A stretch of DNA of 64,000 nt from an uncultured Spirochaetota bacterium (GCA_963734495.1 CAVTHK010000006.1:57109-121108); one strand, 5' to 3'; positions 12,249 to 37,666 are shown, counted from the first letter of the stretch. Numbers and translations: made by a program. The notes: generated by a model not told the origin, from the letters alone.

Positions 12249-14408
12249 CTACCGGGTCTCGATGACCACCAGGTCGTAGATGTCGAGGCGATCGATCGCG
12301 ACGCTCACCATGCCGTCGGAGAATCCAAAAGGAAGCGACGCTCCCGAGGAAGCGCGGAGCACGCGCTTCGGCGACGAGCCGGAAGCAAGCCTGACCTGGA
12401 GCTTGAGGTCGTGCACCGGCACGGTCTCCGACTGCGGCCGCTTGCCCGTGAGGTTGATCAGGTGGACGATCACTCTCCCCTGCTCGGGCTGGGCCTGCAG
12501 CATGAGGTCTACGGTGACCGGCGCTTCGAGCCGCACGATGTCCCTGTAATCGAGGGCCCATCTCACCGCGTTCGCGATGAGCCGCCGGTGGTCCGGGTAG
12601 CCGAAGCGTTCGTAGAGGCGATCCACCATGGCCGGGAAGAACACGACCTTCCCCTTGCCGAATCGATGGGCGATCGCGGCAGGGATGTCGGTGTCCTTGT
12701 GGGCCACCCACGCTTCGCCTTCGGGGAAGACCCGCGCGGGAAGCTGCCCGGTCAGGAACACCTCGGCATCGGGCAGGGCCCGTGTGAGCCGCAGGAACCC
12801 GGCGTTGGGCAGGACATCGGTATCGCCGATGCCCTCCAGCACGGGATGCTCGCGGGCGGCGAGCCGCATGTAGCTCATGATGCGTCCGGCGCCTTCGACG
12901 GTCCCGGCGAGAGGCCCCAGGCGATCCCCGGCGAGGCGGCATCCGAAGACGTCGGCCAGCGCGAAGTCCTTGCGCATCGCGCCTTCCTCCGTGAAGAGAG
13001 AGGTCTCGTACGTGGCTACGAGCCCTCCCCCGCCGCGGACGAACTCCCGGAGGGCCGAGGCCGAGCCGTCGCTCATGGCTGCCGCGTTGGGCACGACGAG
13101 CGTCCCGTACTTCTCCAATCCCTTCGCGGAGGACAGGGCGCTGTCGGGAATGATGTCGAACACGATATGGCTCTCGGCGAGGGCCGAGTAGACGCCCCGG
13201 TAATGCTGCCCGTATCTCTGCCGCGTGTGGTCCCCGGCGTACATGTCGAGGGTTTCGTTGGAAAGGACCACGGCCACATTCACGTAGGAGCGGACGCCGT
13301 CATAGTACTTCTCGTTGTCCGCGAGAAAGTGGAACATGTCGCGGACGGCCTTCATCCCCCTTCGATCTTCAACCATCTGCGGAAATCCGCTGATGTGTAC
13401 AAAGGGATTGACGTTGTTGGCCGCGGCCTCGGCGATCCACATCTTCTCCATCGCCTCGGGGGCGGCGTTCATCCTCCACGGCCAGGGGAAGTAGTAGCTC
13501 GTGGTCGTGATCACCTTGCGGTCGGTGATCGTGTTGAAGTACCGGCCCTCCTCGCCCGCGAACCACATCGGCGGAAGATGGACCTCCCCGTCGATGTCGT
13601 CGAAATAGACCTTGGTCTGAGCCTCGGTTTTGACAAAGTCCTGCAACTCCGAGAGGGCCTGCATGGGCGCGAACGCCCTCTCGGAGATGTCGTAGGCCTG
13701 GTTGATCCAGGTGGCGATCCCCGGCTTCGCCTTGCGGATGGCGTCGATCATCCTGCGGTACTGCTCGATGATCCTCACCTCCCGCCACTTCATGTAGGTC
13801 TTCCAGTTCTCGCTCCCGGATTCGTCCCCGGCCGGGATCTCTCTGCCGCTGGCCTCCCGATACTCGCGCACGCAGTTATGGCAGTGGCAGATGCCCGATC
13901 CGTAAGCGCCGAATCCGAACCCCGTGAGGTTGAAGTGGTCGAAGTCGTAGCGCTCGAGGTGCTCGCGGACCACGGGAAGAATGAAGTTCTCGAGGTACCC
14001 GCCGATCGGGCAGGCGATGTAGAGCTCCACGGGGTGGGCGGTGACGATGTGCGGACCTCCGGACGCCGTCTTCATGAACCATTCCGGGTAGTGGTCGTAG
14101 ACGGGCCGCGGCACCGCCGCGACATCCACGCACGCGCCGACCTTGATGCTGCTCTCGTGGGCGAGACGAACGACGTCGCCCAGAGGGTCACCCTCACCGA
14201 GATAGGGATTGACGCGGTTCAGCGCGATCTCCGAACGGTAGATGCAGTGGTAGCCCGCGGTGAGAAGGCTCACGAAGTTGCACTTGAGGTCGACGAGCGT
14301 GGCGACGAATCGGCGGGGATCGAACCCCTGCATGTCCGGCTCGCGCACCGTGATGTGAATGTTCCGGACCGGCTTGCGGGTCCAGAGCGGCCTGTCGTCT
14401 GCGCTCAT
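12249..14408 (-). CDS. Putative glycoside hydrolase (GHL6/GH42-like TIM barrel plus GATase-like trimerisation domain)
   Basis: SD GGAGGA; GDPLGDVVRLAH, YPEWF, CHCHNC zinc motif, LREFVRGGGGLVATYETSLF, GKGKVVFFP. Confidence 0.75.
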   Translation of the reverse strand: MSADDRPLWTRKPVRNIHITVREPDMQGFDPRRFVATLVDLKCNFVSLLTAGYHCIYRSEIALNRVNPYLGEGDPLGDVVRLAHESSIKVGACVDVAAVPRPVYDHYPEWFMKTASGGPHIVTAHPVELYIACPIGGYLENFILPVVREHLERYDFDHFNLTGFGFGAYGSGICHCHNCVREYREASGREIPAGDESGSENWKTYMKWREVRIIEQYRRMIDAIRKAKPGIATWINQAYDISERAFAPMQALSELQDFVKTEAQTKVYFDDIDGEVHLPPMWFAGEEGRYFNTITDRKVITTTSYYFPWPWRMNAAPEAMEKMWIAEAAANNVNPFVHISGFPQMVEDRRGMKAVRDMFHFLADNEKYYDGVRSYVNVAVVLSNETLDMYAGDHTRQRYGQHYRGVYSALAESHIVFDIIPDSALSSAKGLEKYGTLVVPNAAAMSDGSASALREFVRGGGGLVATYETSLFTEEGAMRKDFALADVFGCRLAGDRLGPLAGTVEGAGRIMSYMRLAAREHPVLEGIGDTDVLPNAGFLRLTRALPDAEVFLTGQLPARVFPEGEAWVAHKDTDIPAAIAHRFGKGKVVFFPAMVDRLYERFGYPDHRRLIANAVRWALDYRDIVRLEAPVTVDLMLQAQPEQGRVIVHLINLTGKRPQSETVPVHDLKLQVRLASGSSPKRVLRASSGASLPFGFSDGMVSVAIDRLDIYDLVVIETR

Positions 14409-14443
14409 CTGATCCTCCTGCGTGTTGTTGCGGCAGGCCACCG

Positions 14444-14962
14444 ACCGTGACCAGGTAGATGGTCGAGCTCAGCAGCGGGAGAGTGATCCAGAAGAGAACC
14501 TCTGGACCCCGCTCGTTCCATCGATCGTGGCAGCCTCGTAGACCTGTTCCGGGACACCCTGAAGGGCCGCCAGGAAGATCACCATGTATCTCCCGGCCGC
14601 CCGGCGAGCTTCGCGTCCAGCAACGGCGCGAGCGCAAGCGTCGCCGCGACCCGCAACGGGACCGAAATTGCAACGAACACGCTCGTGTTGGCCAGGGCCT
14701 TGATCGCGAGATCGTCGGTGAGGATGCGCTTGAGGTTGCTCAGACCGGTCCACTCGAGCGGCGTGATGATGTCGTACCTGGTGAAGCTCAGAAACAACGA
14801 CGTCGCCAGGGGCCCGAGCTGGAAGACCAGGAAGCCGACGACCCAGGGCAGAACGAAGATGCAGCCCCAGAACCAGCGCCTCGCCTCCGACCTGACACGC
14901 CCGCCGGGTCGCAGCGTCCGCCTGCGGTCGGCTGCCTTGAAGTCCGCGACGTGCACGCGCAT
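14444..14962 (-). pseudogene. Remnant of a carbohydrate ABC permease (MalF-like) with internal and C-terminal deletions
   Basis: FVLPWVVGFLVFQLGP..SLFLSFTRYD..WTGLSNL joined almost directly to MVIFLAALQGVPEQVYEAATIDG (EAA motif) and WITLPLLS; middle TM block and C-terminus missing. Confidence 0.8.
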
Positions 14963-15128
14963 ACGCCTCCCGGGCCGCGAAGGTCAACGCAGCGGATCCA
15001 AGCCGCACCGGACCCGCGTCCGCACCCCGCCACGGCCAGACCCTGCGCCGCGCGGGGACCAGGGCACACTATAGACGATCGCCCCCGGAACGAAAAGGCG
15101 TCGAAAGCGGCGGAGAGGGCCCGGCGAC

Positions 15129-16133
15129 CTACACCCGGCTCCAGTCGAACAGCGTCGCCAGCCTCTCGAGGCGCATGTACAGCGTGTCCTGGTAGACCTT
15201 CTGGCAGTCTCTCGGCGACGCGAGGGCGCAGAGCCCCTCGACGTCGATGCGGCCCGACGCGATCCACTGCAGGCCCGTGCCCATGTTGCCGAACATGCTG
15301 TTTTTCCGGAACTCGGCCGGGTGCGCGGCCACTGCCTGCTCCTTGCCGCTGCGGAGGCTCGCGAACGAACGGAACAGCCGGTGCAGCAGGTCCTGCGCGA
15401 AGATCTCCGTCCGCCGCACCATGGGCACGCCTGCTACGACGACCTCGCCGCCCTTTTCCACGAGCGAGACGCCGTCCAGGATCGCCTGCTCGTGACCCGA
15501 GCAGTCGAGCACCAGCGGCACCTTCGCGATGTACGAAGGGTCGTCGAGCGGCATGGCCGGCAGGACCTTGGCGAGCCCCTTGCCTTGCGCGATCCCGCGC
15601 CTCGCCGCCACGGGCTCGACCGCGGTCACGTCGTAGCCGCTGGTGTCGAAGACCAGCGCGGCCATGAGGCCGACCGGCCCCAGCCCGGCGACCACGACCT
15701 TCCCGGGCGGCCGCGCCGTAGTGGTCGTGAGCGCGCTCATCCCGATGTTCATGAGGCGCGCAAACGGAGCACGGTCCGGAGCGAGCCCCGCTGGAAGCGG
15801 GATCACCTCTGCCCGCGGCCAGCGCTGCCACGATGCGTGCTTGCCCTGACAGAAGACGACGTCACCGGCCTTGAGGTCCTGGACCTCGGCGCCGGCCGCT
15901 TCGACGCGGAAGACCGCGGCGTAACCCGGCACGAAGGGGAGCTTCCCCCAGGAAAGGCCTTCCTTCTCGTAGTTCCCGAGATAGATGTTGAGCTCCGTGC
16001 CGGCGCTGACCTGAGTGTAGATCGTGTGACCCGCGACCTCGTTCGGGCCGAGCGGCTTCGCGTCACTCGGCTCGCTCACGAGCTCGGCCTGCTCCGCCGC
16101 CTTGAAGAGGACCTTCGATTCCCGAGCGCTCAC
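15129..16133 (-). CDS. Medium-chain dehydrogenase/reductase (alcohol/sugar dehydrogenase-like)
   Basis: VSAGTE in place of the zinc-binding CxSD, PFVPGY, Rossmann GLGPVG, VLDCSG. Confidence 0.85.
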   Translation of the reverse strand: MSARESKVLFKAAEQAELVSEPSDAKPLGPNEVAGHTIYTQVSAGTELNIYLGNYEKEGLSWGKLPFVPGYAAVFRVEAAGAEVQDLKAGDVVFCQGKHASWQRWPRAEVIPLPAGLAPDRAPFARLMNIGMSALTTTTARPPGKVVVAGLGPVGLMAALVFDTSGYDVTAVEPVAARRGIAQGKGLAKVLPAMPLDDPSYIAKVPLVLDCSGHEQAILDGVSLVEKGGEVVVAGVPMVRRTEIFAQDLLHRLFRSFASLRSGKEQAVAAHPAEFRKNSMFGNMGTGLQWIASGRIDVEGLCALASPRDCQKVYQDTLYMRLERLATLFDWSRV

Positions 16134-16191
16134 CCGCGCCTCCTCGATTCTCGGATAGGGCGACGGCCCCGCAAGGCCGCCGCACTGCGTT

Positions 16192-17025
16192 CTACTTCAG
16201 GCTCGCCAGGTAGCCCTTCATTTTTTTCACGTAGTCCGGGAAGGCGACGTGCGCATCCGGCAGGGCCGGGTGCCACGCCTTTTCCCACTCGAAGGTGAGG
16301 TAGCCCTTGTAGCCGGCATCCTTGAGGAGCTGCAATGCCTCGATGTTCGGCACGTTGCCTTCGCCCAGGAGCGTGTAGCGGTGACCGACCCGTTCGCTCG
16401 GGTCCAGTACGGAATCCTTGAAGTGCGTGTCGTGGGTCCATTTGCCCACGTTGCCGAAGGCCTCTTTCATCGTCTGGCCCAGCGTGCGGAACGGGTGGTG
16501 CACGTCCCAGAGGACGCCGACCCAAGGATGGTTCGCGCGCTCCATGACCTCGCGCACGACATAGGTGTCCGTGAAATCGTCGTGCGTTTCGAGCAGGACG
16601 AGGATCTTCTTCCTGGCGGCGTAGTCGCCCGACGCCTTGAGGCAGTCCACGACCCACCCGTAGGCGTCTTCTTTTTTCGCGTCCTTGGGGATGGCGCCGC
16701 CGAAGACCCGGATCGTCTTCGCGTTCATGGCCTCGGCGAGGTCGATGTTCGCTTTGGCGTCCGCCACGTTCTTGTCGCGCTCGGCCTTGTCCTTCTGCAC
16801 GAACTTGGCCCCGGTCAGCATCATCATGATCTCGAGGCCGGCGTCGCGGAACCGCTTGATCGTGGCCTTGCGGTTCTCAGGGAGAAACTCGGGGATCTTC
16901 GTCAGGTCCATCTGGCCTTTGAGCCCGCGGAACCCGACGCCGTCGTAGCCGTACTGCCTGGCGTACTTGAGGACATCGTCCATCGACCAGTCCGGCGCCC
17001 CGAGCGTGCTGAAGCTCAGTTTCAT
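16192..17025 (-). CDS. Sugar phosphate isomerase/epimerase (xylose isomerase-like TIM barrel)
   Basis: MKLSFSTLGAPDW, IRVFGG, LETHDDF, WDVHHP, HFKD, LTFEWEKAWHP. Confidence 0.9.
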   Translation of the reverse strand: MKLSFSTLGAPDWSMDDVLKYARQYGYDGVGFRGLKGQMDLTKIPEFLPENRKATIKRFRDAGLEIMMMLTGAKFVQKDKAERDKNVADAKANIDLAEAMNAKTIRVFGGAIPKDAKKEDAYGWVVDCLKASGDYAARKKILVLLETHDDFTDTYVVREVMERANHPWVGVLWDVHHPFRTLGQTMKEAFGNVGKWTHDTHFKDSVLDPSERVGHRYTLLGEGNVPNIEALQLLKDAGYKGYLTFEWEKAWHPALPDAHVAFPDYVKKMKGYLASLK

Positions 17026-17048
17026 CAAAGCGTTCTCCTCTCTCGTCG

Positions 17049-18079
17049 CTATTTCGCGCGGTGTCCCGCACCGCTGCCTTCCGTTTCCTTCTCGTCCCTG
17101 TAGAGCCAGCAGCGCGCCGTCTGCGCCTCGCCGACGGCGAACACCGGCGGCTCGTCCGTCCGGCACACGTCCATGGCCTGCGGGCAGCGCGGCGCGAAGG
17201 TGCAGCCCGCGGGCAGCGCGTGCATGCTCGGCACCGACCCCGTGATCGGCGTGAGCCGCGTCCTGCGCCCGATCTGGGGGATCGACGCGAGCAGCCCTTG
17301 CGTATAGGGGTGGCGCGGCCGGTAGAAGATCTGGTAGGTGCTGCCGCCCTCCACGACCTTGCCAGCATACATCACGATGACGCGATCGGCCATCTCCCCG
17401 ATGACCCCCAGGTCATGCGTGATGATCATGATGGACATGCCGAGCTCGGCCTGCAGGTCCTTCATCAGGTTGAGGATCTGCGCCTCGATCGTCACGTCGA
17501 GGGCCGTGGTCGGTTCGTCGGCGATCAGCAGGTGCGGGTCGCAGGAGAGGCCCATCGCGATCATCGCCCGCTGTCTCATCCCGCCGCTGAACTGGTGCGG
17601 GTACTCGTCGACGCGCTGCTCCGGCCGCGCGATGCGCACGCGGCGCAGCATCTCGATCGCGCGCTCGCGCGCCGCCTGCCGTTCCAGTCCCTGGTGCAGC
17701 TGGACCGCCTCGGCGATCTGCTCGCCGACCGTAAAGACGGGGTTGAGCGACGACATCGGCTCCTGAAAGATCATGGCGATCTCGTTGCCTCGGATGGCGC
17801 GCATCTCGGGGCTGTGGGGTTCGAGAGCGGCGATGTCGACCTGCGTGCCGTCCTTGCAGTCGTAGAGGAGGCGCCCCTCGACGATCCGGCCGCGCGGTCG
17901 AGCCAGGAGCTGCATGACCGACAGCGCCGTCACGCTCTTTCCGCAGCCGCTCTCCCCCACGACGCCGAGCGTGCCTCCCGGCTGCACGTCGAAGCTCACA
18001 CCGTCGACGGCCTTGACGACGCCGTCGTCGGTGTCGAACCAGGTCCGGAGGCCCTCGACTCTCAGCAGCGCCCGGTCGC

Positions 18080-18083
<4 letters not shown>
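17049..18083 (-). CDS. Opp/Dpp-family ABC ATP-binding protein (OppD-like)
   Basis: [30 protein letters not shown]-terminal Cys cluster. Confidence 0.95.
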
Positions 18084-19162
<1,079 letters not shown>

Positions 19163-19174
19163 GAGCCTTCCTCT

Positions 19175-20329
19175 CTAGTGATAGGGGTCCGCGGCGTCAC
19201 GCAGGCCGTCGCCGACGAAGTTAAAGGCGAGCACCGCGATCACGACGACCACGCCCGGGATCAGCAGCCACGGGAACAGCGCCACCGTCTGGAGGCTCTG
19301 CGCCTTTTCGAGCAGGACCCCCAGGCTCACGACCGGCGCCCGCAGCCCGATCCCCAGGAACGAGAGCGAAGTCTCGGCGAGGATCATCTGCGGGATCGCC
19401 AGGGTCAGGTTCACGATGATGTAGCTCACGAAGTTGGGCACCAGGTGCCGCGCCACGATCCGCAGCGTCGAGGCGTTGTAGCCGCGCGCGGCGTTCACGA
19501 AATCCTCCTCGCGGAGGCTGATGAACTTGCTGCGCACGACGCGCGCGAGCCCCGTCCAGCCCATCAGCGAGAGGATGATGGTGATCGCGAAGTAGACCTG
19601 GATGGCGCTCCAGCTCTTGGGCACGGCGGCCGCGAGCGCCATCCACAGCGGAAGCTTGGGGATCGCGAGCAGCGTCTCGATCACTCGCTGGATCACGTCG
19701 TCGACCGCCCCGCCGATGAGGCCGGAGATGCCCCCGAACAGCAGGCCGAGGACGAGGCTGATGAACACGCCGATGAACCCGATCGTGAGCGAGACCTGCG
19801 AGGCGAGGAGAATGCGGCTGAGCAGGTCGCGCCCGAGGTGGTCGGTGCCGAGCAGGCTCACCTGCCCCCCTCTCTCGACGCCGAAGAGGTGGACGTCGCT
19901 CGGGATCAGGCCGAGCAGCCGGTAGGCGTCGCCGCGGCAGAAGAGCCGGATCGGATACCTGCGGCTCGTGTCGGGAAAGTACCTCATCTGCCAGGTCTGC
20001 GGGTCCATCTTCTTGACCCACTTGTACACGAACGGCTGCAGGTGGAAGCGCCCCTGCACGTCGCGCAACCGCAGAGGCTGCGGCGGCAGATACGTCTCCT
20101 TGAACGCCGTGGTGGCCGCGTAGGGTGCGAAGAAATCCGGGAAGGCCACCCCCACTCCGTACAACACGATCAGCGCCCAGAAACCGGCCACGGCCAGCTT
20201 GTGGCGCAGGAAGTGCCGGAGGATGAGCCTCCACTGCGTCTGCGCGACGGCGCGCTCGCCGCCCGGGCCGCTCCCCGGCGCCCCGCTGCCAGGCCTTTCC
20301 GGGCGTTCGACTTCGACTACGGTCGACAT
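19175..20329 (-). CDS. Opp/Dpp-family ABC permease (OppC-like)
   Basis: LGTDHLGRDLLSR, ETSLSFLGIG, FNFVGDGLRDAADP. Confidence 0.93.
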   Translation of the reverse strand: MSTVVEVERPERPGSGAPGSGPGGERAVAQTQWRLILRHFLRHKLAVAGFWALIVLYGVGVAFPDFFAPYAATTAFKETYLPPQPLRLRDVQGRFHLQPFVYKWVKKMDPQTWQMRYFPDTSRRYPIRLFCRGDAYRLLGLIPSDVHLFGVERGGQVSLLGTDHLGRDLLSRILLASQVSLTIGFIGVFISLVLGLLFGGISGLIGGAVDDVIQRVIETLLAIPKLPLWMALAAAVPKSWSAIQVYFAITIILSLMGWTGLARVVRSKFISLREEDFVNAARGYNASTLRIVARHLVPNFVSYIIVNLTLAIPQMILAETSLSFLGIGLRAPVVSLGVLLEKAQSLQTVALFPWLLIPGVVVVIAVLAFNFVGDGLRDAADPYH

Positions 20330-20339
20330 GCGGGCCTCT

Positions 20340-21326: not shown

Positions 21327-21356
21327 GGGCAGCCCTCAGGATTCCGCGGAAAGGAA

Positions 21357-21385
21357 CCGTCGGGCCGGCCGGACCGGCCCGACGG
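21357..21385 (-). other. Intercistronic stem-loop after the solute-binding protein gene
   Basis: CCGTCGGGCCGG-ccgga-CCGGCCCGACGG, perfect 12-bp stem. Confidence 0.65.
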
Positions 21386-21398
21386 CGTTCTGCTATGA

Positions 21399-23462
21399 CT
21401 ATGGCTCCAGGTACCACTGCATGGGGTAATAGACGTACATGTACCCGGTGCGCCAGTCCCAGATGCCCTTGGTCGGCACGTTTTTCAGCTTGTTGGAAAC
21501 CATGATCGGCTGCGGCGCCATCGAGACGGTCCCGATGTACCACAGGTTCTCGGCCTGCGCCTTGAGCAGCTTGTCCGCGGCCTCGTCGCGCTTCTTGGGG
21601 TCGATGTCGGTCCCGAGGATGTCGCGGTACGCGTTGAGCTGCTTCATCAGCGGGGGAGGTTCCACGCCCTTCTCGCCGTTGCTGATGTAGTAGTTCCGCC
21701 AGCCCGGCCACGGGGTGTCCTTGCCGCTGTCGGCTCCCGCCGGTGCCAGGTCCCGGTCCGCGCCGCCGAATGAGGTGTCCGTCATCTGGTCCATGAGCAG
21801 CGCGTGGGCGTCGCCCTTGTTGGTGGGCCAGAACGTGTCGTGCAGCGAGCGGGCGACCTGCTTGGTGTCGAACTTGAGCCCCACGGCGTCCAGCTTGGCT
21901 TTGATCAGCTCGACGACCGGCGCAGGGTCGACCGTTCCGACGATGGCAAAGATCATCTGCGGGCTGAACTTCTTGCCGCTCGGCGTCTCACGCCAGCCGT
22001 CGCCGTCCCTGTCCTTCATGCCCATCTCGTCGAGCAGCCTCTTGGACTCCTCCGGCTTGTACTCGACGTACGCCTGGGCGTACTCGGGCTTGAAGTAGCG
22101 GCTCGTCGGCGGGATGGTCGCCTGCATGACGATGGCCTGCCCGAAGTAGACCTTGTCGTTGATCTCGTTGCGATCAATGGCCTGCGAGACCGCTCGGCGG
22201 AAACGCACGTCGTTGAAGACCGCGTACATGTCGGGGTTCTCGTGCGAGAGGTTCAGCAGCACCACGATGTCCGATCCGTACGCCCTGCTGTAGATCAGGG
22301 TCTTGTAGCCGGACTTCTGCTCGTTGGCCTTGTACAGCGGGATGTTGGGGGTCTGGGTAAAGCGCCCCGACAGGTGGGCCTCGCCGGTCACCATCTTGGC
22401 GGCCGCGATCTCGGGGTTGGCGGCGATGTTGACCCGCACCTTGTCGATGTACGGAAGCTGGTTGCCCTGCGTGTCCACGAAGGGCCAGTAGGGGTTGCGC
22501 TCCCACATCATGTAGGTCTCGGTGCGCTCCGTCACGACGTAGGGCGAGATGACCGGCTTCTGGGCCTCCCACTCGGGGTGGTCGTGCGAGTCGTTGGAGA
22601 CGCGCAGGTAGTACTGCCACCATTCCTTCAATCCCACCTTCTTCGCCATCTCGGTGATCTTGTCCACCGGCGTGAAGTCAGGATGGAAAGCCTTGAGATA
22701 ATGGGCGGGAGGGATGGGGACGATCGGGAACAGGTTGGCGTAGAAGTTGTAGTCGTGGAAGCGCGGATTGGGCTTGGCGAAGATAAAGGTCACCGTGTAG
22801 TCGTCGACCTTTTTGAACCCCGTCATCGCGATCGGCGTGATCTTGTCCGGCGGGGTCGGCGTCAGGTTCTTGTTGAAAGCGACGTGCTCCCACCAGAACT
22901 CGAGGTCCGCGGCCGTGAACGGCGCGCCGTCCGACCACTTGAGCCCCTTGCGCAGCTTGAGGGTGAGCTGCGTAAAGTCGGGCGAGTAGCTCCAGCCCTC
23001 GAGTATGAAGGGCACGGTCCTGCGGCCATCGGGGGTGGGGCGCCCGGGCCCGGGTTGGTGCTCCGGCCACTTGAAGAACATCGTGTCGCCGCGGTAGTTC
23101 GGCTCGGCCCAGACGATCGCGGTGCCGCCGTAGGTTCCGACCTTCTCGTAAGGCTCGACGACCGGCGGATCCGCAGGCAGTCGGTCCTTGACCGCCGGAA
23201 GCTTGCCCGCCTTGACCCGCTCGGCGAGCATCGGCGACTCCTGGTAGGCCTTGATGCCTGCCTGCGACGCGAGCTTGGGGGCTTCGTACCAGCTCTTGGG
23301 GACCTTCGCGTCGACGTACCGGCTGATGTCGGTTTGCACAGCCTCCTTCGGACCGGCTGCGGCCGAGTCGGCCCCTCCGCTCTTCTCGCCGGTCGCTCCA
23401 GCCCACAAGGGCAGCGCGAAACAGAACGCCATGAGAACGAGGAACACAACGAGCCTGCTCAT
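21399..23462 (-). CDS. ABC solute-binding protein, family 5 (probably oligosaccharide-binding)
   Basis: Signal peptide; ESPMLAERVKAGKLPAVKDRLP, LRKGLKWSDGAPFTA, ERNPYWPFVDTQGNQLPYID. Confidence 0.92.
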   Translation of the reverse strand: MSRLVVFLVLMAFCFALPLWAGATGEKSGGADSAAAGPKEAVQTDISRYVDAKVPKSWYEAPKLASQAGIKAYQESPMLAERVKAGKLPAVKDRLPADPPVVEPYEKVGTYGGTAIVWAEPNYRGDTMFFKWPEHQPGPGRPTPDGRRTVPFILEGWSYSPDFTQLTLKLRKGLKWSDGAPFTAADLEFWWEHVAFNKNLTPTPPDKITPIAMTGFKKVDDYTVTFIFAKPNPRFHDYNFYANLFPIVPIPPAHYLKAFHPDFTPVDKITEMAKKVGLKEWWQYYLRVSNDSHDHPEWEAQKPVISPYVVTERTETYMMWERNPYWPFVDTQGNQLPYIDKVRVNIAANPEIAAAKMVTGEAHLSGRFTQTPNIPLYKANEQKSGYKTLIYSRAYGSDIVVLLNLSHENPDMYAVFNDVRFRRAVSQAIDRNEINDKVYFGQAIVMQATIPPTSRYFKPEYAQAYVEYKPEESKRLLDEMGMKDRDGDGWRETPSGKKFSPQMIFAIVGTVDPAPVVELIKAKLDAVGLKFDTKQVARSLHDTFWPTNKGDAHALLMDQMTDTSFGGADRDLAPAGADSGKDTPWPGWRNYYISNGEKGVEPPPLMKQLNAYRDILGTDIDPKKRDEAADKLLKAQAENLWYIGTVSMAPQPIMVSNKLKNVPTKGIWDWRTGYMYVYYPMQWYLEP

Positions 23463-23549
23463 GATCGATCGCTCCTTTTGTTGCAAGGTCGGACCGGATT
23501 CGAACGCGCCGTCAACGCCGCCTGGACTTCGCACCTCCTCGAGCGATGC

Positions 23550-23603
23550 ATTATATACCGGAATCCGCCAGCCGTGTTCATGAAAATCGTTCACCGATTT
23601 TCA
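23550..23603 (-). promoter_or_regulatory. -10 box and palindromic operator upstream of the ABC operon
   Basis: TATAAT (minus strand, 23550-23555); perfect inverted repeat TGAAAATCG-N5-CGATTTTCA at 23581-23603. Confidence 0.65.
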
Positions 23604-23628
23604 CGGTCAGGCGCATCGGCGCGCGGCT

Positions 23629-24540
23629 TCAGCCGCCGCCGCGGACCGCGACGGAGGTGTGGCGGCCGACTTCGGCGACCCAGGCGGCCAGCGAGTCGGC
23701 GGAGGGAGTGTTCGTTTGCGGCAGCGTGGGCGCGCGGCCGAGACCGGGCAGCTTGGAGGTGCCCAGAGGATGATATGGAAGAAGGTCTACGCGCGCCACG
23801 CCCTCGAGCCTCGCGGCCAGCTCGCCGATCGCGCGCAGGTGGCCGGGCCTGTCGTTCAGGCCCGGGATGAGCGGGCAGCGCAGGATGATGCGAGCGCCGG
23901 ACCGCGAGAGGCGCTCGAGATTCGCCAGGATGAGCCGGCCGTCGGCGCCGGTCAGGCGCTCGTGCGCTTCGGGGTCGGTCTCCTTGACGTCGAAGAGGAA
24001 GAGGTCCACGCGGCCGAGCAGCGCCTCGAGGCGTTCCCACGGCGCCTGGCCGCTGGTGTCGAGGCAGGTGTGCAGCCCCTGCGCCTTCGCGGCAGCAAGC
24101 AGAGCGGCCGTGAATTCATGCTGGAACAGGGGCTCACCGCCGGAGATCGTCATGCCGCCGCCCGAGGTCTCGTAGAAGGGCCTGTCCGACAGCACCTGCT
24201 CCATCACCTGCTCGACGGTCATGGAGCGGCCGACCCGCTCGAGGGCGCCGGAGTAGCACTGCTCGGAGCAGAGCCCGCAGCGCACGCACTCCGTCCGGTC
24301 GAAGGCGTGCTTGCCGTCGACGGCGCGGTGGCATCCGTGGGGGCAGACCCCGACGCACGCGAGGCAGCCGATGCAGCGGTCAGGTCTCCATGCGAGCTCG
24401 GGCTGCGGATCCATCGACTCGGGGTTGTGGCACCAGAGGCAGCGCAGCGGGCAGCCTTTGAGAAAGACGGTCGTGCGGATGCCCGGGCCGTCGTGAATCG
24501 CGAACCGCTGGATGTCGAAGACGAGGCCTGCGATGCCCAT
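23629..24540 (-). CDS. Glycyl-radical enzyme activating enzyme (radical SAM with ferredoxin insert)
   Basis: IQRFAIHDGPGIRTTVFLKGCPLRCLWCHNPES; two CxxCxxCxxxC ferredoxin motifs; SGGEP; LLPYH. Confidence 0.96.
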   Translation of the reverse strand: MGIAGLVFDIQRFAIHDGPGIRTTVFLKGCPLRCLWCHNPESMDPQPELAWRPDRCIGCLACVGVCPHGCHRAVDGKHAFDRTECVRCGLCSEQCYSGALERVGRSMTVEQVMEQVLSDRPFYETSGGGMTISGGEPLFQHEFTAALLAAAKAQGLHTCLDTSGQAPWERLEALLGRVDLFLFDVKETDPEAHERLTGADGRLILANLERLSRSGARIILRCPLIPGLNDRPGHLRAIGELAARLEGVARVDLLPYHPLGTSKLPGLGRAPTLPQTNTPSADSLAAWVAEVGRHTSVAVRGGG

Positions 24541-24550
24541 CGTTTGAGGG

Positions 24551-24580
24551 AGTGTAGCCGGGGCCGGCGCGGCGCGGCAA
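24551..24580 (-). promoter_or_regulatory. Candidate internal promoter for the activase gene
   Basis: Minus strand TTGCCG-18 nt-TACACT, 10 nt before the ATG. Confidence 0.5.
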
Positions 24581-24587
24581 CAGCCTC

Positions 24588-25440
24588 TCAGTGCCCTCTC
24601 GAGCGCCCGAGGAGGCTCGCCACGACGGCGGCGAGCGCCGGCCGCTCCGCCGCATCCTTGAAGCCGGCCATGCGGCCGTAGATCTCGGCCGCGGCCTCGT
24701 GGAAGCCGCGCGGAAGCCCGGCGCTCTCCATGGTCGCCGCGATCTCCAGCATTTCGCCGACAAAGCGCCACGCCTTGGCCGTCACGGAGCGCGTGCGGTC
24801 CGAGGCGCCGGAGGCAAGCTCGGGTTGCGAAATGGCCCATTCGCTGCGCAGGCTCGCGTCCACGCCTTCGGCCTCGGCCAGGGCGAGCACGGCGGCGACG
24901 AGCGCCTGGCTGCCCTTGGTCCAGGCCGAGTAGGCCATCTTCAGGGCCGACGCGGCCCCGACCGGCCCGCGCAGGTCGATCGCTTCGAGCGGGCTTCCCG
25001 CGAAGAGCTCCACGGCCTCGGCGGCCCGCGGCCCGCTCACGTAGAGGCGAGTCGTCTTCGGCTTCCACGGAGGACCGCCGATGATGCCGCCGTCGATGCA
25101 GCGGCCGCCTCCGCCTTCGACGAGGGCCGCGATCTCGCGCGCCCGGGCGGGCGAGACCGCATTCGCGTCGAGGTACGTGCCGCTGAACCCGAAGTTCATG
25201 ACTGCCGCGGCGACGTCTCGCGCCGAGGCCGGCGGCACGACGCTCACGATCATCGTGCTTCGCTCGACGAGCGACCGGAGCGCGCCCGCGTCCTCGAGGC
25301 CCGCCCTGGCCGCGCGCCGGCTGCTCGCCGCGCTCCGGCCTTCGGAAGCCCAGAGGACCGCGGCCCCGGAGCCGCGAGCCGCGGCGCCGACCGCCGATCC
25401 CATCTCGCCGGGACAAAGGAGTCCCACTGTTGCATGCGCA
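24588..25440 (-). CDS. NAD(P)-dependent oxidoreductase (6-phosphogluconate/3-hydroxyisobutyrate dehydrogenase-like, DUF1932 type); body downstream of the group II intron
   Basis: VGLLCPGEMGSAVG Rossmann motif, DANAVSP, DGGIIGGPP, ASALKMAYSAWTKG, KAWRFVGEM; in-frame ATG found only across the intron (27386). Confidence 0.88.
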
Positions 25441-27375
25441 ATTGGTCGATTACTGGCGCGGTACCGCTAACGCGGCCCGTTTCCAGTTCCTCCTTTCAAA
25501 CTGTGCGTGCGGTTTTCCCGCACACAGCTTACCGATGGTTTTCCTGAGACGGCTTGCGCGGGGTATCGCACGGTCCCGGCGAGCTTGTACAGGCCCAGGT
25601 CCCATAGTCGTTGCGGGGCCACCGGTCATAGCGGAAGCGCGTGCGCTGTCCGCCCCGGCGTCTCTTGCCAGTCGAGTACCCGTTTATACACGTAGGTGTC
25701 CATCTCTTTGAACTTCGCCTGCGAGTTTCCCGTCTGGAAGTAGTTGCCCCACCCGCGCAGCACCGGGTTCAGCAGCTCGATCAAGCTCATCCAGTCTTCC
25801 GGGCCGGACCGCTGCGCACGTCGGTCAGCTCATGGACCCGGGTACGAATGCGCTTCATCGCCTTGGGCGACGGCCACCGCTGCACGAAGTGCACCCGCGG
25901 ATTCCGCAGGATGCTTCGTCGCTTGCGCACTGTCCACCCAAGAAACTGAAAGCTCCTTCGCCTCGGTTGAGCCTGACCACGCGCGTCTTCTCGGGATGCA
26001 GCTCCAGGCCCAGGCGCCCCATGATGATCCGTATGCGCCTGAGGGCTTCCTGCGCCTGCCGACTCGCGGCGACACAGCACCACGAAGTCATCGGCATACC
26101 GCACCAGGACTCCCAGGTGCGAGCACCTGTCCGTCCAGATGCGGTCCAGAACATCCAGGTAGATGTTCGCCAGCAGCGGCGAGATCACGCCCCCTTGCGG
26201 CGTTCCCGCCAGCGTCTCTCTCACCGTCCCGTCTTCCATCACTCCTGCCTGTAACCACTGTCGGATCAGCTTCAGCACGCGCCGATCCGAGACCCGCTCC
26301 GTCACCAGCCGCAGCAGCTTCCTCTGGTCGATGCTGTCGAAGTAGCCTCGGATGTCCGCGTCGACCACCACGTTGTAGCCCCGGTTGCCAGCCTCACGGA
26401 TGGCCTCCATCGCCTGCGTCGCGCTGCGCCTCGGGCGGAACCCGTAGCTGCAATCCTCGAAAGTCCGCCTCGAAGATCGGTTCGATGACGAGCTTCGTCG
26501 CCATCTGCACCACCCGGTCGCGCACCGTCGGTATCCCCAGCGGCCGCTGCTTTCCGTCTCCCTTCGGGATGTACCGCCTTCGCACCGGCGCCGGTCGGTA
26601 CTTGCCTGCCTTCAGGGTAGCCTCAATCCCTCGCAGGAACTCAGCCACCCCTCCGTCCTCGATGTCAGCGAGCGTCTCTCTGTCCACACCAGCCGCACCG
26701 CCGTTGGCCCGCACTCGCTCCCACGCTTCCCACAGGACGTCACTCCTGTAGATCCGGTCGTACAGCGCGTGGAACCGCCGCGTCCTACTCCGCTTGGCAC
26801 ACATCCATAGCCGTCGTTGGAGTTCTCGCACTTTGTCTGTGGGGTTGTTGGGTCCTTCGACCATGCCCTCGCGCTTACCTCCGCCTCCGGCGTAACCAAA
26901 GCAGGGCCCCTTCCCTCCAGCGGTTTCTCGCCGCCTTCCCCGGTACTATGAGCCCCTCGGACTCCCTCCCGGCTCCGCGCGATTTCGGTCTACCCCTTAT
27001 ACGCGCGGTCTTCGCCCGACAAGGCGCACCGGGTAGGGTCTCTCGTGTTCCGCACCATCCCTTCAAAACGTGCCGTCGCCAGTACCCCGGGGATGTCCAG
27101 TGCTCTTCCGGATCACGAGTCACTGTCTGTTGCCTTCGCCGCGACATGAGCGGCTCGGCCATCCCGATCCACCTTTCGGCTGATAATCTGTCGAGGCTTG
27201 CTCGGCGTTCACTGCGCGTTACGGCCCGCTTCCTTGCTCCCTCCTGTCAGAGGCCTTCGACGGTCCGCTCAGCCGCAGGGATCTCTCCCCACAACCGGAC
27301 CCTGCTACCGGGCGCTCCGGCGCTTACCTGGGCGGGACTCTCACCCGCTGGGGCGATGCAGCTTTCACGACGCAC
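25441..27375 (-). mobile_element. Group II intron (about 1.9 kb, RT-encoding, no endonuclease domain)
   Basis: 5' end GTGCG at 27375; domain V AGCTGTGTGCGGGAAAACCGCACGCACAGTT; 3' end ...CGACCAAT at 25441; EBS1 loop UCAUGUC (27143-27149) complementary to 5' exon ...GCCATG. Confidence 0.93.
25467..26864 (-). CDS. ltrA: Group II intron reverse transcriptase/maturase (several frameshifts as sequenced)
   Basis: [74 protein letters not shown]-terminus overlaps domains V-VI. Confidence 0.9.
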
Positions 27376-27424
27376 CATGGCGCCATCCTATCATAGGGCC
27401 GCGCCCGGCGTTCGGGTGAAGCCC

Positions 27425-27462
27425 TTGACCGGGCCGGGCCCCGCCTCTACGCTCGCGCTATG
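27425..27462 (+). promoter_or_regulatory. sigma70 promoter with probable leaderless start for the glycyl-radical enzyme
   Basis: TTGACC-17 nt-TACGCT-6 nt-ATG (27460); no SD. Confidence 0.7.
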
Positions 27463-29620
27463 AGCGTCCCCAGTCGCCGCCGCAGAGCTGACCTTCGCAG
27501 ACCGCATCCGACTGCTGCGCGAGAAGAAGATCCGCCAGACGCAGGAGAAGCTCGCGAAGAACGGCCCGATGGACGAGGACGATTACGGGACCGTCCTTCC
27601 GCCCGAGGGCTTCGTATGGAAGCCGATCCCCAACCATGCGAACGGCAGCTTCTACGGGCTCGACGGCTGGGCGCGCAACTTCCGCTCGCTCATGGAGTGC
27701 CACCCGACCTACGTCGACCCGCTGGACGCGCTGGCCGGGCGCTGGATGGTCTTCATGTCTCGCCTGCGGCCGGTCAAATGGAAACCGGAGCTGGACTACT
27801 CGCGCCTCAAGCCGTACCACGAGCTCTACGGCATCATCCCCGGGATCGGAGCGGACAGCCACTTCGCGCCCGACTACCGCATCGGTCTCGAGCTCGGCTG
27901 GGGCGGCTTGCTGGATCGGGTGCGCCGATGCCGCGCCGCCCGGGGAGCCGACAAGGCCGCGTTCTACCAGGCCGAGGAGGACACGATCCTCGGCGTGCAG
28001 AGCTGGATCAGGCGCACGGTCGCCGCGATTCGCGAAGCGGAGTCCCGCGAGCCGCGGCCGGAGCTGCGGCGGAACCTCCGCGAGATGGCCGACGTCAACG
28101 AGCGCCTGGTGAGCGGCGCGCCGCGCACGCTTCGCGAAGCCTGCCAGTGGATCGCCTGGTACAACATGGCCTCGCGCACGTACAACCGCGACGGGGCCGG
28201 CGGCCAGCTCGACGAGCTGCTTCGCCCCTACTACGAGCGCGACCTCGCGGCGGGGAGAGTCGACGACGAGGAGGCGACCTTTGTCTTCGCCTGTCTTCTC
28301 CTCAACGACGCGCACTACTACCAGATCGGCGGGCCCGGCCCCGACGGCCGCGACGTGACGTCGAAGGTCTCGTTCCTCATCCTCGAGGCCGCCCACCGCA
28401 TGGGCGTCTCCGCGAACCTCACGATCCGCGTGCACGAGGGCCTCGACAACGAGCTCTTCCTCAAGAGCGTCCGCCACCTGTTCGAGGACAGGCTCGGCTG
28501 GCCGCGCTACTCCGGCGACAAGGCGCTCGTCGACGGGTTCATGCGCAACGGCTATCCGGCCGAGCTCGCGCGCAGCCGCATCGCGGTCGGGTGCCACTGG
28601 ATGGCGATCCCGGGCCGGGAGTACACGCTCAACGACTGCGTCAAGATCAACATGGCGAAGGTGTTCGAAGCCGCGTTCTCGGAGCGGGGCGAGCGCACGG
28701 TCGAGGCGCTCTGGCGCCGCTTCGAAGCCCACCTCGAGCGCGCGGTGGCGGTCGTGGCGGAGGGGATCGACTTTCACCTCGCGCATCAGAAGGACAACAG
28801 CCCCGAGCTCATGCTGAACCTCCTCTGCCGCGGGCCGATCGAAAAGGGCGTCGACGTCACCGACGGCGGCGTCGAGATGTACAACATGTGCGTCGACGGG
28901 ACCGCGCTCGCCACGGTCGCGGACTCGTTCGCCGCCGTCGAGCAGCGCGTCGAGCGGGAGCGCCGCCTGAGCTGGGACGAGCTGGCCGCGGCGCTCCGCC
29001 GGGATTTCGCCGGCGTCGAGGGCGAGCGCGTGCGCCTGATGCTCCGCGCGAGCGAGCGCTACGGGCAGCCCGGTTCGCTCGGCGAGAAGTGGGCGGTGCG
29101 CCTCTCGCGCCGGTTCACCGAGCTCGTCAAGGCCGGGCCCACGCCGGGCGGCCGCATCATGATCCCGGGCTGGTTCAGCTGGTCGAACACGATCGCCATG
29201 GGGAAGGTCGTCGGCGCGACGCCTAACGGAAGGCATGCGGCCGCCCCGATCTCGCACGGCGCGAACCCCGACCCCGGCTTCGCCCGCGACTCCGCGCCGA
29301 CGCTGATGGCGCGGGCTATCGCGAAGATCCAGCCGGGCTACGGCAACACCGCGCCGATTCAGCTCGAGCTCGACCCGGGCGCCGCGCGCGGCGACGACGG
29401 GATCGCGAAGGTCGCGGCGCTCATCCGCACGCACTTCGAGCTTGGCGGGACCCTGTTCAACATCAACGTGATCGACGCGAAGCAGATCCGCGAGGCCCAC
29501 GCCGACCCCTCGAAGCATCCCGACCTCGTCGTGCGCGTGACGGGCTTTACCGCCTACTTCGCGGCGCTCTCGCCCGAGTTCCGGCAGCTCGTGGTCGACC
29601 GCATCATCGATGAAGGGTGA
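27460..29620 (+). CDS. Glycyl-radical enzyme of unknown function (PFL superfamily)
   Basis: C-terminal DLVVRVTGFTAYF glycyl motif, GATPNGR, cysteine loop IAVGCHW; extending from 27569 to ATG 27460 needs removal of one C in CCCC (27468-27471). Confidence 0.93.
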
Positions 29621-29624
29621 GCCT

Positions 29625-30827
29625 ATGGAAGAGAGCCGCCTGCGCGCGCTGAGCGCGTCTTTCAGGACCGCGTTGCTCCAGGACACGCTCCCCTTCTGGA
29701 TCGACCACTGCGTGGATCGCCGTTACGGCGGCTTCGCGACGTTCGTCGACCGCAGGGGAGAGCCGCTCTCGGGCGACAAGGGCGGCTGGGTGCAGGGCCG
29801 CTTCACGTGGCTGCTCGCGCGGCTGTACAACACGCTCGAGAAGCGGCCCGAATGGCTGGCGCTCTCGCGTCACGGCATCGAGTTCATCGAGCGCTGCGGC
29901 ATCTCGCCCGAGGGACGCGTGTACTTCACCCTCACGCGCGAGGGGAAGCCGCTGCGCCTGCGCCGCTACATCTACGCCGAGACCTTTGCCGCCATCGCGT
30001 TTGCCGAGTATGGCCGGGCTGCCGGCGATGCGGCGCGCGTAGCTCGCGCTCGGGCCCTCATGGAGATGGTCGAGCGTTTGCTCTCGACGCCGGGCGCGCT
30101 CGCGCCCAAGTTCTTTCCCGACGCGTTCCAGGCGCGCTCCCACGCCGTCGCGATGATCCGGGTCGCCACCTACCAGATCCTGCGCGAGGCCGACCCCGCG
30201 AACGCGGCGAATTACAGCGCGCTCATCGACCGCTCGATCGCCGAGATCTTCGACCTGTTTCTCAAGCCCGAGCGGCGGGCCCTGCTCGAGACCGTCGGCC
30301 CGGGCGGCGAGATGCTCGACGGTCCGGCTGGACGCTGCGTGAACCCGGGCCACGCGATCGAGACCTGCTGGTTCCTGATGACGGAGGCGCGGTTCCGCCG
30401 CGACCGGGCGCTGCTCGAGCGCGCGCTGCCGATCCTCGACTGGTCGCTCGAGCGCGGGTGGGACCCGGTGCACGGCGGCCTCTTCTCGTTCGTCGACGTC
30501 GAAGGCCGCCAGCCCGAGCAGGTCGAGTGGGACATGAAGTACTGGTGGCCCCACACCGAGGCGATCTACGCCACGCTGCTGGCGCACGCGCTCACGGGCC
30601 GCGCTTCCTACGCGGAGTGGTTCGAGCGCGTCCTCGACTGGGCGCTGGCCCATTTCCCCGACCGCGAGCACGGCGAGTGGTTCGGCTACCTGCACCGCGA
30701 CGGTTCCGTCGCCATGGACCTCAAGGGCAACAACTGGAAGGGGCCGTTTCACCTTCCGCGCGCCCAGCTCTACTGCGCCCTGCTGCTCGAGGAGATGATC
30801 GGCCGCGGCGTGCCGCTGCCGTTGTGA
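29625..30827 (+). CDS. AGE-family epimerase/isomerase (N-acylglucosamine 2-epimerase-like)
   Basis: LPFW, DKGGWVQGRFTW, NPGHAIETCWF, KYWWPHTE, GEWFGYL, KGPFHLPR. Confidence 0.92.
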   Translation: MEESRLRALSASFRTALLQDTLPFWIDHCVDRRYGGFATFVDRRGEPLSGDKGGWVQGRFTWLLARLYNTLEKRPEWLALSRHGIEFIERCGISPEGRVYFTLTREGKPLRLRRYIYAETFAAIAFAEYGRAAGDAARVARARALMEMVERLLSTPGALAPKFFPDAFQARSHAVAMIRVATYQILREADPANAANYSALIDRSIAEIFDLFLKPERRALLETVGPGGEMLDGPAGRCVNPGHAIETCWFLMTEARFRRDRALLERALPILDWSLERGWDPVHGGLFSFVDVEGRQPEQVEWDMKYWWPHTEAIYATLLAHALTGRASYAEWFERVLDWALAHFPDREHGEWFGYLHRDGSVAMDLKGNNWKGPFHLPRAQLYCALLLEEMIGRGVPLPL

Positions 30828-34760: not shown

Positions 34761-34762
34761 GC

Positions 34763-36580: not shown

Positions 36581-36588
36581 CTCGGCAC

Positions 36589-37593: not shown

Positions 37594-37622
37594 AGTGTGC
37601 CGCCGCCTCCCCGCCGAAGAAA

Positions 37623-37650: not shown

Positions 37651-37666
37651 GTCGAGGCGAATCCTA

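Follow-up and report, generated by a model that had tools for sequence, protein, structure and literature searches.

We analysed a 64,000-nt stretch of DNA from an uncultured Spirochaetota bacterium (GCA_963734495.1 CAVTHK010000006.1:57109-121108), hereafter called the window; all coordinates refer to this whole 64-kb stretch. It encodes a glycyl radical enzyme (GRE) that, according to sequence analyses, is a member of a large, uncharacterized family of ~720-residue proteins with a GC[H/N]W motif, conserved across many phyla. As judged from this motif, the enzyme fits neither the formate-lyase class with its Cys-Cys pair nor the eliminase/isomerase class with its Cys-x-Glu motif. The explanation that best accounts for the data overall, and that we hold to be reasonably probable, is that this family GRE, activated by the neighbouring activase, would use a thiyl radical to abstract hydrogen from a neutral, sugar-derived substrate.

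A family of glycyl radical enzymes with a Cys-x-Trp loop

The GRE gene has the following features.

27460 to 29620, + strand: GRE gene, with an open frame at 27569-29620 coding for 683 residues (Pfam, motifs, AlphaFold2 model)
28580 to 28600, + strand: Cys loop IAVGCHW, residues 338-344, with Cys342 and Trp344
29534 to 29548, + strand: glycyl radical motif RVTGF (consensus RVxG[FYW]), residues 656-660, with Gly659

The product of the 27569-29620 ORF matches the Pfam signatures of the PFL-like (PF02901, 307.4 bits) and Gly_radical (PF01228, 48.6 bits) domains. An initial, sequence-only reading of the window had placed a GRE with the IAVGCHW and RVTGF motifs at 27460-29620. The enzyme is real and both motifs were found, but the span is not one ORF, as detailed below. 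The conserved Cys is located on the loop between the half-barrels, and in alignments with PflD, glycerol dehydratase (GD), CutC and HpsG the position of Cys342 is that of their catalytic Cys. The AlphaFold2 model of the GRE, built from a 15-sequence alignment, has a pLDDT of 89.2 and a pTM of 0.91. In a Foldseek search with this model all top matches were GREs (TMq 0.77-0.87), with PflD as the best one (8yjo_A, E 2e-39, TMq 0.86, 24% identity). By its domains, motifs and ten-stranded barrel fold, the protein is thus a genuine PFL-like GRE with all the structural hallmarks.

In alignments to PflD, GD, CutC, HpsG and the structure 2f3o, Trp344 takes the position of the Glu residue at Cys+2; the Cys loop reads AVGCHWMAIPGREY in the GRE and VVGCVELSIPGRTY in PflD. 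The consulted parts of a GRE review of June 2026 (PMC13450708) describe six C-O eliminases, CutC, the C-S lyases and three isomerases as keeping the CXE motif, with the Glu bound to the substrate, and state that the Cys-x-Glu base is retained in every characterized GRE outside of the PFLs, the decarboxylases and the X-succinate synthases (XSS). In those same parts, the Glu at Cys+2 is required for deprotonation of the C2-OH in PflD and YbiW, and a Cys-x-Trp loop is not mentioned. Our literature search returned no paper on a Cys-x-Trp GRE, although an earlier mention in the sequence similarity network paper of Levin (2017) or in the primary PflD/YbiW work is possible. A paper on GH130 touches on GREs only in passing.

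To assess conservation, 199 family sequences were compared with the window's protein as the reference; they comprise search hits and locus proteins, which may overlap and are not independent. Cys342, Trp344, Glu351, Asp356, Glu413, His98 and Gly659 are each found in 199/199 sequences. The residue at Cys+1 is His in 130 of the 199 and Asn in 69, and the two alternate within tight clades of a 73-row tree. A catalytic role for His343 was rejected because of this swap; the His of GCHW is not essential, being replaced by Asn in about a third of the members. Among wider Cys-x-Trp relatives, Glu413 is kept in 9/9 and Glu351 in 7/9, whereas both positions vary among 30 Cys-x-Glu GREs.

In dehydratases, GD Asp447 has a role in leaving-group/hydroxyl binding. 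It aligns with Asp356 of the GRE, while GD His164 corresponds to His98, GD Tyr339 to Tyr250, and GD Tyr640 to Phe536. GD His164 protonates the leaving group, according to the parts of the review at hand (PMC13450708). The loop of the GRE that matches the Ser282 loop of GD is three residues shorter, and a PGWFSWS segment, described as pocket-lining and aromatic-rich, contributes two further Trp residues.

A word-indexed protein search, in which 8000 candidates were scored, yielded 3806 relatives at E<=0.001. The best 120 of these are 66-100% identical to the GRE and mostly 717-729 residues long; their loop is GCHW in 74 and GCNW in 34, and 12 fall outside this pattern. The few names found on relatives are 'formate acetyltransferase' or 'pyruvate formate lyase family'. 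Among representatives of clusters at 50% identity, all full-length matches down to 41% identity have GC[H/N]W. The next tier (26-35% identity, ~700-760 residues) has GCHWW, GCQW, GCFW, GCYW, GCGW or ACPW, and only then come Cys-x-Glu enzymes. Based on this order of loop variants, the GC[H/N]W family is nested in a wider Cys-x-Trp clade.

Members of that wider clade with Trp at Cys+2 are P0144, P0149, P0161, P0164, P0172, P0173, P0178, P0180 and P0189. P0128 (1052 residues), a member of the family, has an N-terminal extension of ~340 residues with a ferredoxin-like Cys motif, its GRE part spanning residues 339-1027. This protein possibly represents a fusion of an activase with a GRE.

When one genome was scanned for each species, 565 stretches encoding a relative were identified. 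The best 80 of these 565 loci (51-89% identity) belong, judging by their record titles, to Planctomycetota, Verrucomicrobiota, Lentisphaerota, Kiritimatiellota, Bacillota, Bacteroidota, Chloroflexota, Bathyarchaeia, Spirochaetota and several candidate phyla. The carriers are from soils, sediments, digesters and animal guts. Those of Lentisphaerota include the cultured Oligosphaera ethanolica DSM 24202 (locus L067), and those of Bacteroidota a metagenome-assembled genome (MAG) labelled Bacteroides thetaiotaomicron. The gene is patchy in the window's own order, being present in 3 of the 31 genomes searched, its own included.

Relationship with characterized GREs

The best match of the GRE by sequence in the PDB is E. 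coli PflD (8yjo, E 2.4e-61, phmmer), followed by GD, CutC, HpsG and a second PflD. A search of solved structures with a family profile gave the same ranking (PflD at E 2.8e-93). The PFL in the PDB matches only the C-terminal ~175 residues of the GRE (E 1e-21). All NCBIfam models of GREs score far below their cut-offs: TIGR01774 (PFL2-3) 245.2 vs 678.2, NF007437 (PflD) 225.7 vs 1109, the equivalog models of CutC, HypD and HpsG/HpfG 169 vs 1050, 162 vs 1100 and 195.6 vs 1000, respectively, and TIGR01255 (PFL) 67.7 vs 994. The earlier claim that GCHW lies outside of the Cys-Cys and Cys-x-Glu patterns is borne out by these comparisons, with Trp344 on the Glu and all equivalog scores below cut-off.

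PflD and YbiW (8yjo, 8id0, 8id7), which convert 1,5-anhydromannitol-6-P and 1,5-anhydroglucitol-6-P to 1-deoxyfructose-6-P, are the closest solved relatives by both sequence and fold. Shared features are the single loop Cys, a PG-x-x-Y-x-L-x-D segment after the Cys loop, the His aligned with GD His164, an activase with a ferredoxin insert, and the sugar context. Nevertheless, identities in structural alignments are limited to 24% (8yjo) and 20-21% (8id0, 8id7), the GRE is ~60-100 residues shorter, it has Trp instead of the Glu of C-x-E, and it has no phosphotransferase system (PTS) or aldolase partner.

The 1,2-eliminases (GD 1r8w, propanediol dehydratase 5i2a, CutC, HypD and HpsG/IslA) have the same PFL2/dehydratase-like fold (TMq 0.80-0.87). 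They share with the GRE the His98/Asp356 pair, aligned with GD His164/Asp447, and the TIGR02494 type of activase. In contrast, the GRE lacks the C-x-E motif, has Phe536 for GD Tyr640 and a shorter Ser282 loop, and is devoid of microcompartment or aldehyde-dehydrogenase partners. With PFL/TdcE it has the superfamily and the Gly loop in common, but not the Cys-Cys pair (G-C-H-W, with a single Cys).

Organization of the locus

At ~67% G+C, spurious long ORFs are common in the window, and genes were therefore selected by their third-position G+C content (GC3) and Pfam matches. Around the GRE gene, the following features were identified.

29625 to 30827, + strand: AGE-family (N-acylglucosamine 2-epimerase-like) gene (Pfam PF07221, 160 bits); alternative ATG at 29610
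~25441 to 27375, - strand: group II intron, ends approximate (Rfam domains, split reverse transcriptase)
24588 to 25427, - strand: 6PGDH-like NAD-binding/DUF1932 oxidoreductase, first gene of the minus-strand arm, GTG start
23629 to 24540, - strand: GRE-activating radical SAM enzyme with a two-cluster ferredoxin insert, 303 residues from the ATG at 24540 (Fer4 and Radical_SAM matches)
17049 to 23594, - strand: family-5 (Opp/Dpp-type) ABC importer, whole set (Pfam)
21399 to 23594, - strand: SBP_bac_5 protein of this importer (Pfam)
20340 to 21326 and 19175 to 20416, - strand: its two permeases (Pfam)
18080 to 19162 and 17049 to 18083, - strand: its two ATPases (Pfam)
16192 to 17166, - strand: xylose-isomerase-like TIM-barrel protein of the sugar isomerase/epimerase type (PF01261, 116.8 bits)
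15129 to 16133, - strand: MDR (zinc-type) alcohol/polyol dehydrogenase (Pfam, NCBIfam)
14579 to 14962, - strand: small ORF without Pfam match, within the minus-strand arm
12249 to 14441, - strand: putative glycosidase, GHL6 + GH42M + ThuA-like (Pfam)

All genes that had been listed for a divergent arm are thus present, but the two arms are not simply divergent, as a group II intron lies between them. Downstream of the AGE gene are a PhoU-like gene and then a PHO4 phosphate transporter, so the plus-strand unit consists of the GRE and AGE genes only. The TIM-barrel protein has only weak NCBIfam matches and no relative in the PDB by sequence. The GHL6 protein has a weak PDB match to the alpha-L-fucosidase 6tvk (E 2e-7); its specificity could not be derived from its Atlas neighbours, as only GHL6 clusters of unknown specificity were returned.

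The second ATG of the AGE gene (29625) is 4 nt past the GRE stop codon, in agreement with the initial reading, and equals the start in the closest orthologue, while the first ATG (29610) overlaps the GRE gene by 11 nt. The AGE product has full-length PDB matches to 8bry, 6f04, 2gz6 and 1fp3 (E 2.4e-108 for 8bry to 2.2e-72) and is closest in this search to true N-acylglucosamine 2-epimerases rather than to cellobiose 2-epimerases. It thus resembles the known N-acylglucosamine 2-epimerases in its full-length match and in its PF07221 score, which is above the cut-off, but its NF052547 score of 341.6 bits is below the equivalog cut-off of 600. The presence of this gene beside that of the GRE suggests that, in this genus, a reducing sugar and its C2 epimer may be involved. 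A literature search turned up no mention of a GRE-AGE pairing.

The intron is ~1.9 kb long and occupies nearly the whole intergenic space. Its 5' GUGCG is at ~27375, domains D1-D4 were detected at 27084-27350 (Rfam, best E 1.8e-20) and domains V/VI at 25438-25532, and its reverse transcriptase is broken into two frames, 26394-26864 and 25787-26410. It leaves only ~84 nt upstream of the GRE ATG and ends ~14 nt from the GTG start of the oxidoreductase gene, in sense orientation in the 5' untranslated region (UTR) of the oxidoreductase-activase arm. In the window's own genome (G000), a 70%-identical copy is found at G000:C9:6077-7735 and a fragment at C2:66040-66501. No copy was found in a genome of the same genus (G001).

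The 5' end of the GRE gene required closer inspection. The 2161-nt span 27460-29620 is not a single frame, as the ATG at 27460 does not share the frame of the remaining sequence. The in-frame stretch 27464-27568 codes for the conserved N-terminal 35 codons of the family, the homologues of ~720 residues having an N-terminal helix of the type M..ELTYxxRLxxLRExK... It contains no ATG, GTG or TTG, and it is preceded by a TGA at 27461. A DNA alignment with the same-genus orthologue revealed a single extra base just after the ATG, near 27466. The gene may genuinely be frame-shifted, in which case translation perhaps begins at Met37 (27569), or the draft assembly may be wrong here. Past this point, the frame of 683 codons is intact, with a GC3 of 0.94 like that of the neighbouring genes. 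In public sequencing runs, the share of sampled words found is at most 0.16. Contigs assembled from four such runs contained intron domains and scattered GRE pieces of relatives, and none covered 27408-27509.

G001 keeps the GRE-AGE pair (89% and 87% protein identity, respectively), with DNA homology from 27473 to 30821 of the window. The divergent upstream neighbour of the pair in G001 is a DHDPS-family aldolase gene (locus L087, 3663-4652, + strand; G001:C162), and in the closest public contig, L007, a response regulator gene follows the aldolase gene. The DHDPS family includes N-acetylneuraminate lyase, and an aldolase of this family together with an AGE presumably recalls the lyase-plus-epimerase pair of sialic-acid catabolism. 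The MDR-TIM-ABC-SBP5-activase block is conserved on another G001 contig, C142, which ends inside the activase gene. Thus, it is only in the window's genome that the arm directly adjoins this GRE. The activase is in the sugar-import arm of both genomes, which indicates that the arm is tied to some GRE.

The activase scores 341.7 bits with TIGR02494 (cut-off 174), and its gene is ~2.9 kb from that of the GRE on the divergent arm. The window's genome has four PFL-like loci and, with this query, two strong activase matches, namely the window's own and one beside a GRE on contig C2. We attempted to pair activase and GRE by phylogeny, using a FastTree phylogeny of 55 activases, but this was unsuccessful: the window's activase is about as far (2.2-2.5) from the family-linked activases as it is from the other GRE activase of its genome.

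Genetic environments of the family

Neighbourhoods were analysed in the best 80 of the 565 loci, by tblastn with the window's proteins and from our own ORF calls, which kept 78 loci (L017 and L025 were lost). Pfam analyses were performed on 66 of 80 recurring neighbour clusters and on 75 singletons transcribed in the direction of the GRE gene. By tblastn, the activase was found in 54/80 loci, the AGE in 3/80 and the other proteins of the arm in 0-6/80. The activase cluster is present in 51/78 loci, usually directly upstream of the GRE gene and on the same strand. Hidden Markov model (HMM) searches detected an AGE in five loci, in three of them within 5 kb of the GRE. Hence the AGE, as well as the family-5 importer, the MDR dehydrogenase and the GHL6 protein (0-6/80), are not conserved partners. 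The chain of import, hydrolysis, epimerization and radical step that had been built on them holds at the level of the genus at most, the G001 pair having other upstream genes.

A different set of genes recurs beside the family. The oxidoreductases are Gfo/Idh/MocA proteins, short-chain dehydrogenases/reductases and FAD oxidoreductases, and the isomerases and dehydratases comprise xylose-isomerase-like TIM barrels, phosphomannose isomerase (PMI)-type and other cupins, AGE, MR/MLE proteins and UxuA dehydratases. Kinases are of the FGGY and ROK types, regulators of the AraC, GntR or LacI type, and transporters of the CUT1 and ribose-type ABC, MFS, RhaT-like and SSS types. Glycosidases of families GH92, GH76, GH47, GH38, GH130, GH116, GH127, GH20, GH28, GH78, GH29, GH10 and GH2 were also identified. 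No PTS gene and no recurring aldolase were found beside the family, and kinases are few (FGGY in four loci, ROK in three).

Within 5 kb of the GRE, Gfo/Idh/MocA genes are present in 24/78 loci, or 14 of the 33 loci whose flanks extend for 5 kb or more in each direction; the corresponding counts per 78 loci are 11 for cupins, 8 for TIM barrels and 3 for AGE. The density of Gfo/Idh/MocA genes decreases with distance from the GRE (8.5, 6.1, 3.3 and 0.6 per 100 kb in four bins of 2.5 kb), and all 15 of 15 cupin genes are in the first 2.5 kb. At least one carbohydrate-type gene was found in 56/78 loci, a lower bound as distant singletons remained unannotated, and in 41/78 such a gene belongs to the same-strand run of the GRE. 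Thus, the sugar setting proposed from the window alone extends to the family, and the homologues with GC[H/N]W mostly keep carbohydrate genes as neighbours but not the AGE gene.

The Gfo/Idh/MocA neighbours did not help to assign a substrate, because their PDB matches are distant and mixed (E ~1e-20), including levoglucosan dehydrogenase, DgpA, GFOR, 1,5-anhydrofructose reductase (2glx) and inositol dehydrogenases. Similarly, the small proteins encoded directly downstream of the GRE could not be identified. Those of clusters c4 (~258 residues) and c16 (~142 residues) have only sub-threshold Cupin_2 matches, and six other ORFs found downstream of the GRE gave no Pfam match.

In the Bacteroidota loci L040, L042, L045, L051, L056 and L081, the GRE gene is inside mannan/N-glycan-type polysaccharide utilization loci with GH92, GH76, GH47, GH38, GH130 and SusC/D genes. 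An AraC regulator is encoded upstream in L040, L042, L056 and L081, and a 140-residue cupin-like ORF directly downstream in L040, L051, L056 and L081. In the Oscillospiraceae MAG locus L086, two activase-GRE pairs of the family are in tandem, followed by genes for electron transfer flavoprotein (ETF) subunits, an FAD-linked oxidase and a LarA-like lactate racemase.

Proposed reaction and alternative explanations

In the explanation that we favour, the neighbouring radical SAM activase would install a glycyl radical on Gly659, from which a thiyl radical would be generated on Cys342. The latter would then abstract hydrogen from a substrate that is neutral and derived from a sugar. In this genus, the family-5 ABC importer and the GHL6 glycosidase would probably deliver this substrate, and the AGE would probably interconvert it with its C2 epimer. 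Trp344 might serve as a sugar-stacking wall, with the base provided from elsewhere, Glu413 and Glu351 being the candidates. A keto or deoxy product would be passed on to the oxidoreductases and isomerases that recur beside the family; the recurrence of relatives of sugar C2/C3-dehydrogenases, together with cupin, TIM-barrel and AGE isomerases, suggests that the reaction either yields or uses up such a sugar. As for the chemistry itself, a radical C-O cleavage or isomerization akin to the reactions of PflD/YbiW and the dehydratases would be favoured by the retention of His98 and Asp356 and by the proximity to PflD/YbiW, but this proposal is speculative and we consider it doubtful. Somewhat more plausible, although short of likely, is that the GC[H/N]W family and the wider Cys-x-Trp clade represent a further mechanistic class of GREs that act on neutral sugars or sugar-derived rings in the absence of the Cys-loop Glu, with a relocated base or none.

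Several observations weigh against the favoured explanation. The missing Glu base speaks against a plain PflD/YbiW mechanism. The activase was paired with the GRE from proximity alone, and the activase tree gives no partner assignment, the genome's other GRE activase ranking 7th by distance to that of the window. In G001, the GRE-AGE pair and the arm are on different contigs, with other genes in between. With a frame shift at its 5' end and an intron in its promoter region, this copy of the GRE gene may or may not be expressed. The neighbour counts stand without a genome-wide background control, and the neighbours are heterogeneous, with mannan-type polysaccharide utilization loci, fucosidase/rhamnosidase genes, amino-sugar genes, sugar-acid dehydratases and inositol-like sets. 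Because of this heterogeneity, the family may have several specificities, or its substrate may be a common small metabolite instead of a sugar ring.

We weighed four other explanations. The absence of the Glu base from the Cys loop in 199/199 sequences can be taken to mean that no Glu-assisted C-O, C-N or C-S elimination takes place at all, and that the enzyme is a thiyl-radical epimerase or isomerase acting on a sugar C-H, or catalyses a reaction on a keto sugar made by its Gfo/Idh/MocA partners. Such a reaction would agree with the aromatic-rich PGWFSWS segment, with Phe536 in place of GD Tyr640, with the shorter Ser282 loop and with the recurrence of isomerase-type partners (cupins, TIM barrels and AGE). 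Nevertheless, His98 and Asp356 are kept, and their counterparts serve in leaving-group/hydroxyl binding in dehydratases (for His164, see the parts of PMC13450708 cited above); two invariant, family-specific Glu residues could relocate the base; and the same parts of the review describe no GRE epimerase. On balance, we find this possibility rather unlikely, but it fares best among the alternatives.

The second alternative stays closer to PflD, the nearest solved relative by sequence and fold. The GRE would be a non-phosphorylated counterpart of PflD/YbiW that yields a 1-deoxy-ketose by opening the ring of free 1,5-anhydro-D-mannitol or 1,5-anhydro-D-glucitol, or of a comparable cyclic ether. 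AGE, cupin isomerases or paired Gfo/Idh/MocA proteins, the latter being related to 1,5-anhydrofructose reductase, would funnel the C2 epimers to one GRE, where E. coli has two. The paucity of kinases, the lack of PTS genes beside the family and the recurring mannose-related neighbours (GH92, GH76, GH47, GH38, GH130, PMI-type cupin and AGE) are also in its favour. However, AGE-type epimerases act on reducing sugars, not on anhydro-alditols, and no aldolase recurs beside the family. The match of Gfo/Idh/MocA neighbours to the 1,5-anhydro-D-fructose reductase 2glx, one PDB entry among others, is offset by equally close matches to levoglucosan dehydrogenase, DgpA, GFOR and inositol dehydrogenases. 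Moreover, the Glu at Cys+2 that PflD and YbiW need, according to the available parts of PMC13450708, is always Trp in the family. We therefore regard this reaction as unlikely.

No more probable in our view is the explanation that concerns this copy only, namely that it is non-functional or unlinked to the arm. The locus would then be decaying or rearranged, as marked by the intron insertion and by the frame shift at codon 3, and the GRE-AGE pair and the activase arm would be close to each other by accident. The extra base after the ATG relative to the same-genus orthologue and the ~84 nt that the intron leaves upstream of the GRE speak for this explanation. So does the G001 arrangement, in which the pair has other upstream genes, the arm is on another contig, and homology between both genomes starts exactly at the coding start, 27473. 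On the other hand, the 683-codon frame after the shift is intact, with a GC3 of 0.94 and 89% identity to the orthologue, and the extra base, located where a draft metagenome assembly is rich in C, could be an error. The intron has the same orientation as the arm, whose 5' UTR contains it, and could splice out, and besides the activase of the C2 GRE, that of the window is the only one found in the genome with this query.

Lastly, it is very unlikely that the substrate of the GRE in this genus is an N-acetylhexosamine or a sugar derived from sialic acid (N-acetylmannosamine, N-acetylglucosamine or a derivative), since the closeness of the adjacent epimerase to true N-acylglucosamine 2-epimerases, the DHDPS-family aldolase gene divergently upstream of the G001 pair and the NagB-like, amidohydrolase, GH20 and BNR-repeat genes that a small number of related loci contain are set against an AGE found in only 3/80 loci by tblastn or five by HMM, amino-sugar genes that are a small minority of the neighbours, and an NF052547 score (341.6 < 600) that leaves the AGE substrate unproven.

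If the GC[H/N]W family and the wider Cys-x-Trp clade do represent a further mechanistic class, this would define an unrecognized anaerobic carbohydrate pathway present across Planctomycetota, Verrucomicrobiota, Lentisphaerota, Kiritimatiellota, Bacillota, Bacteroidota, Chloroflexota and Bathyarchaeia. The Bacteroidota in the proposed Cys-x-Trp class include gut Bacteroides. Once known, the reaction would reveal a GRE mechanism not seen before or else a new way in which a common compound derived from carbohydrates is handled anaerobically, and thousands of genes now labelled 'formate acetyltransferase' would gain an annotation. The cultured carrier O. ethanolica DSM 24202 and the complete genome behind locus L055 make the question directly testable.

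Other features of the window

Two further regions of the window, both outside of the locus described above, are of note. On the minus strand, the gene for a class II (B12-dependent) ribonucleotide reductase at 6533-10925 is split by intein sequences, with Intein_splicing and LAGLIDADG_3 matches; ORF calling gave an overlapping pair, 6533-9187 and 8937-10925. The regions 33789-39389 and 41244-42671, also on the minus strand, encode a second family-5 ABC transporter set, which includes a 605-residue ORF (34763-36580) that fuses a permease domain with an ATPase domain, and, further on, a protein with an L-fucose isomerase C-terminal domain.

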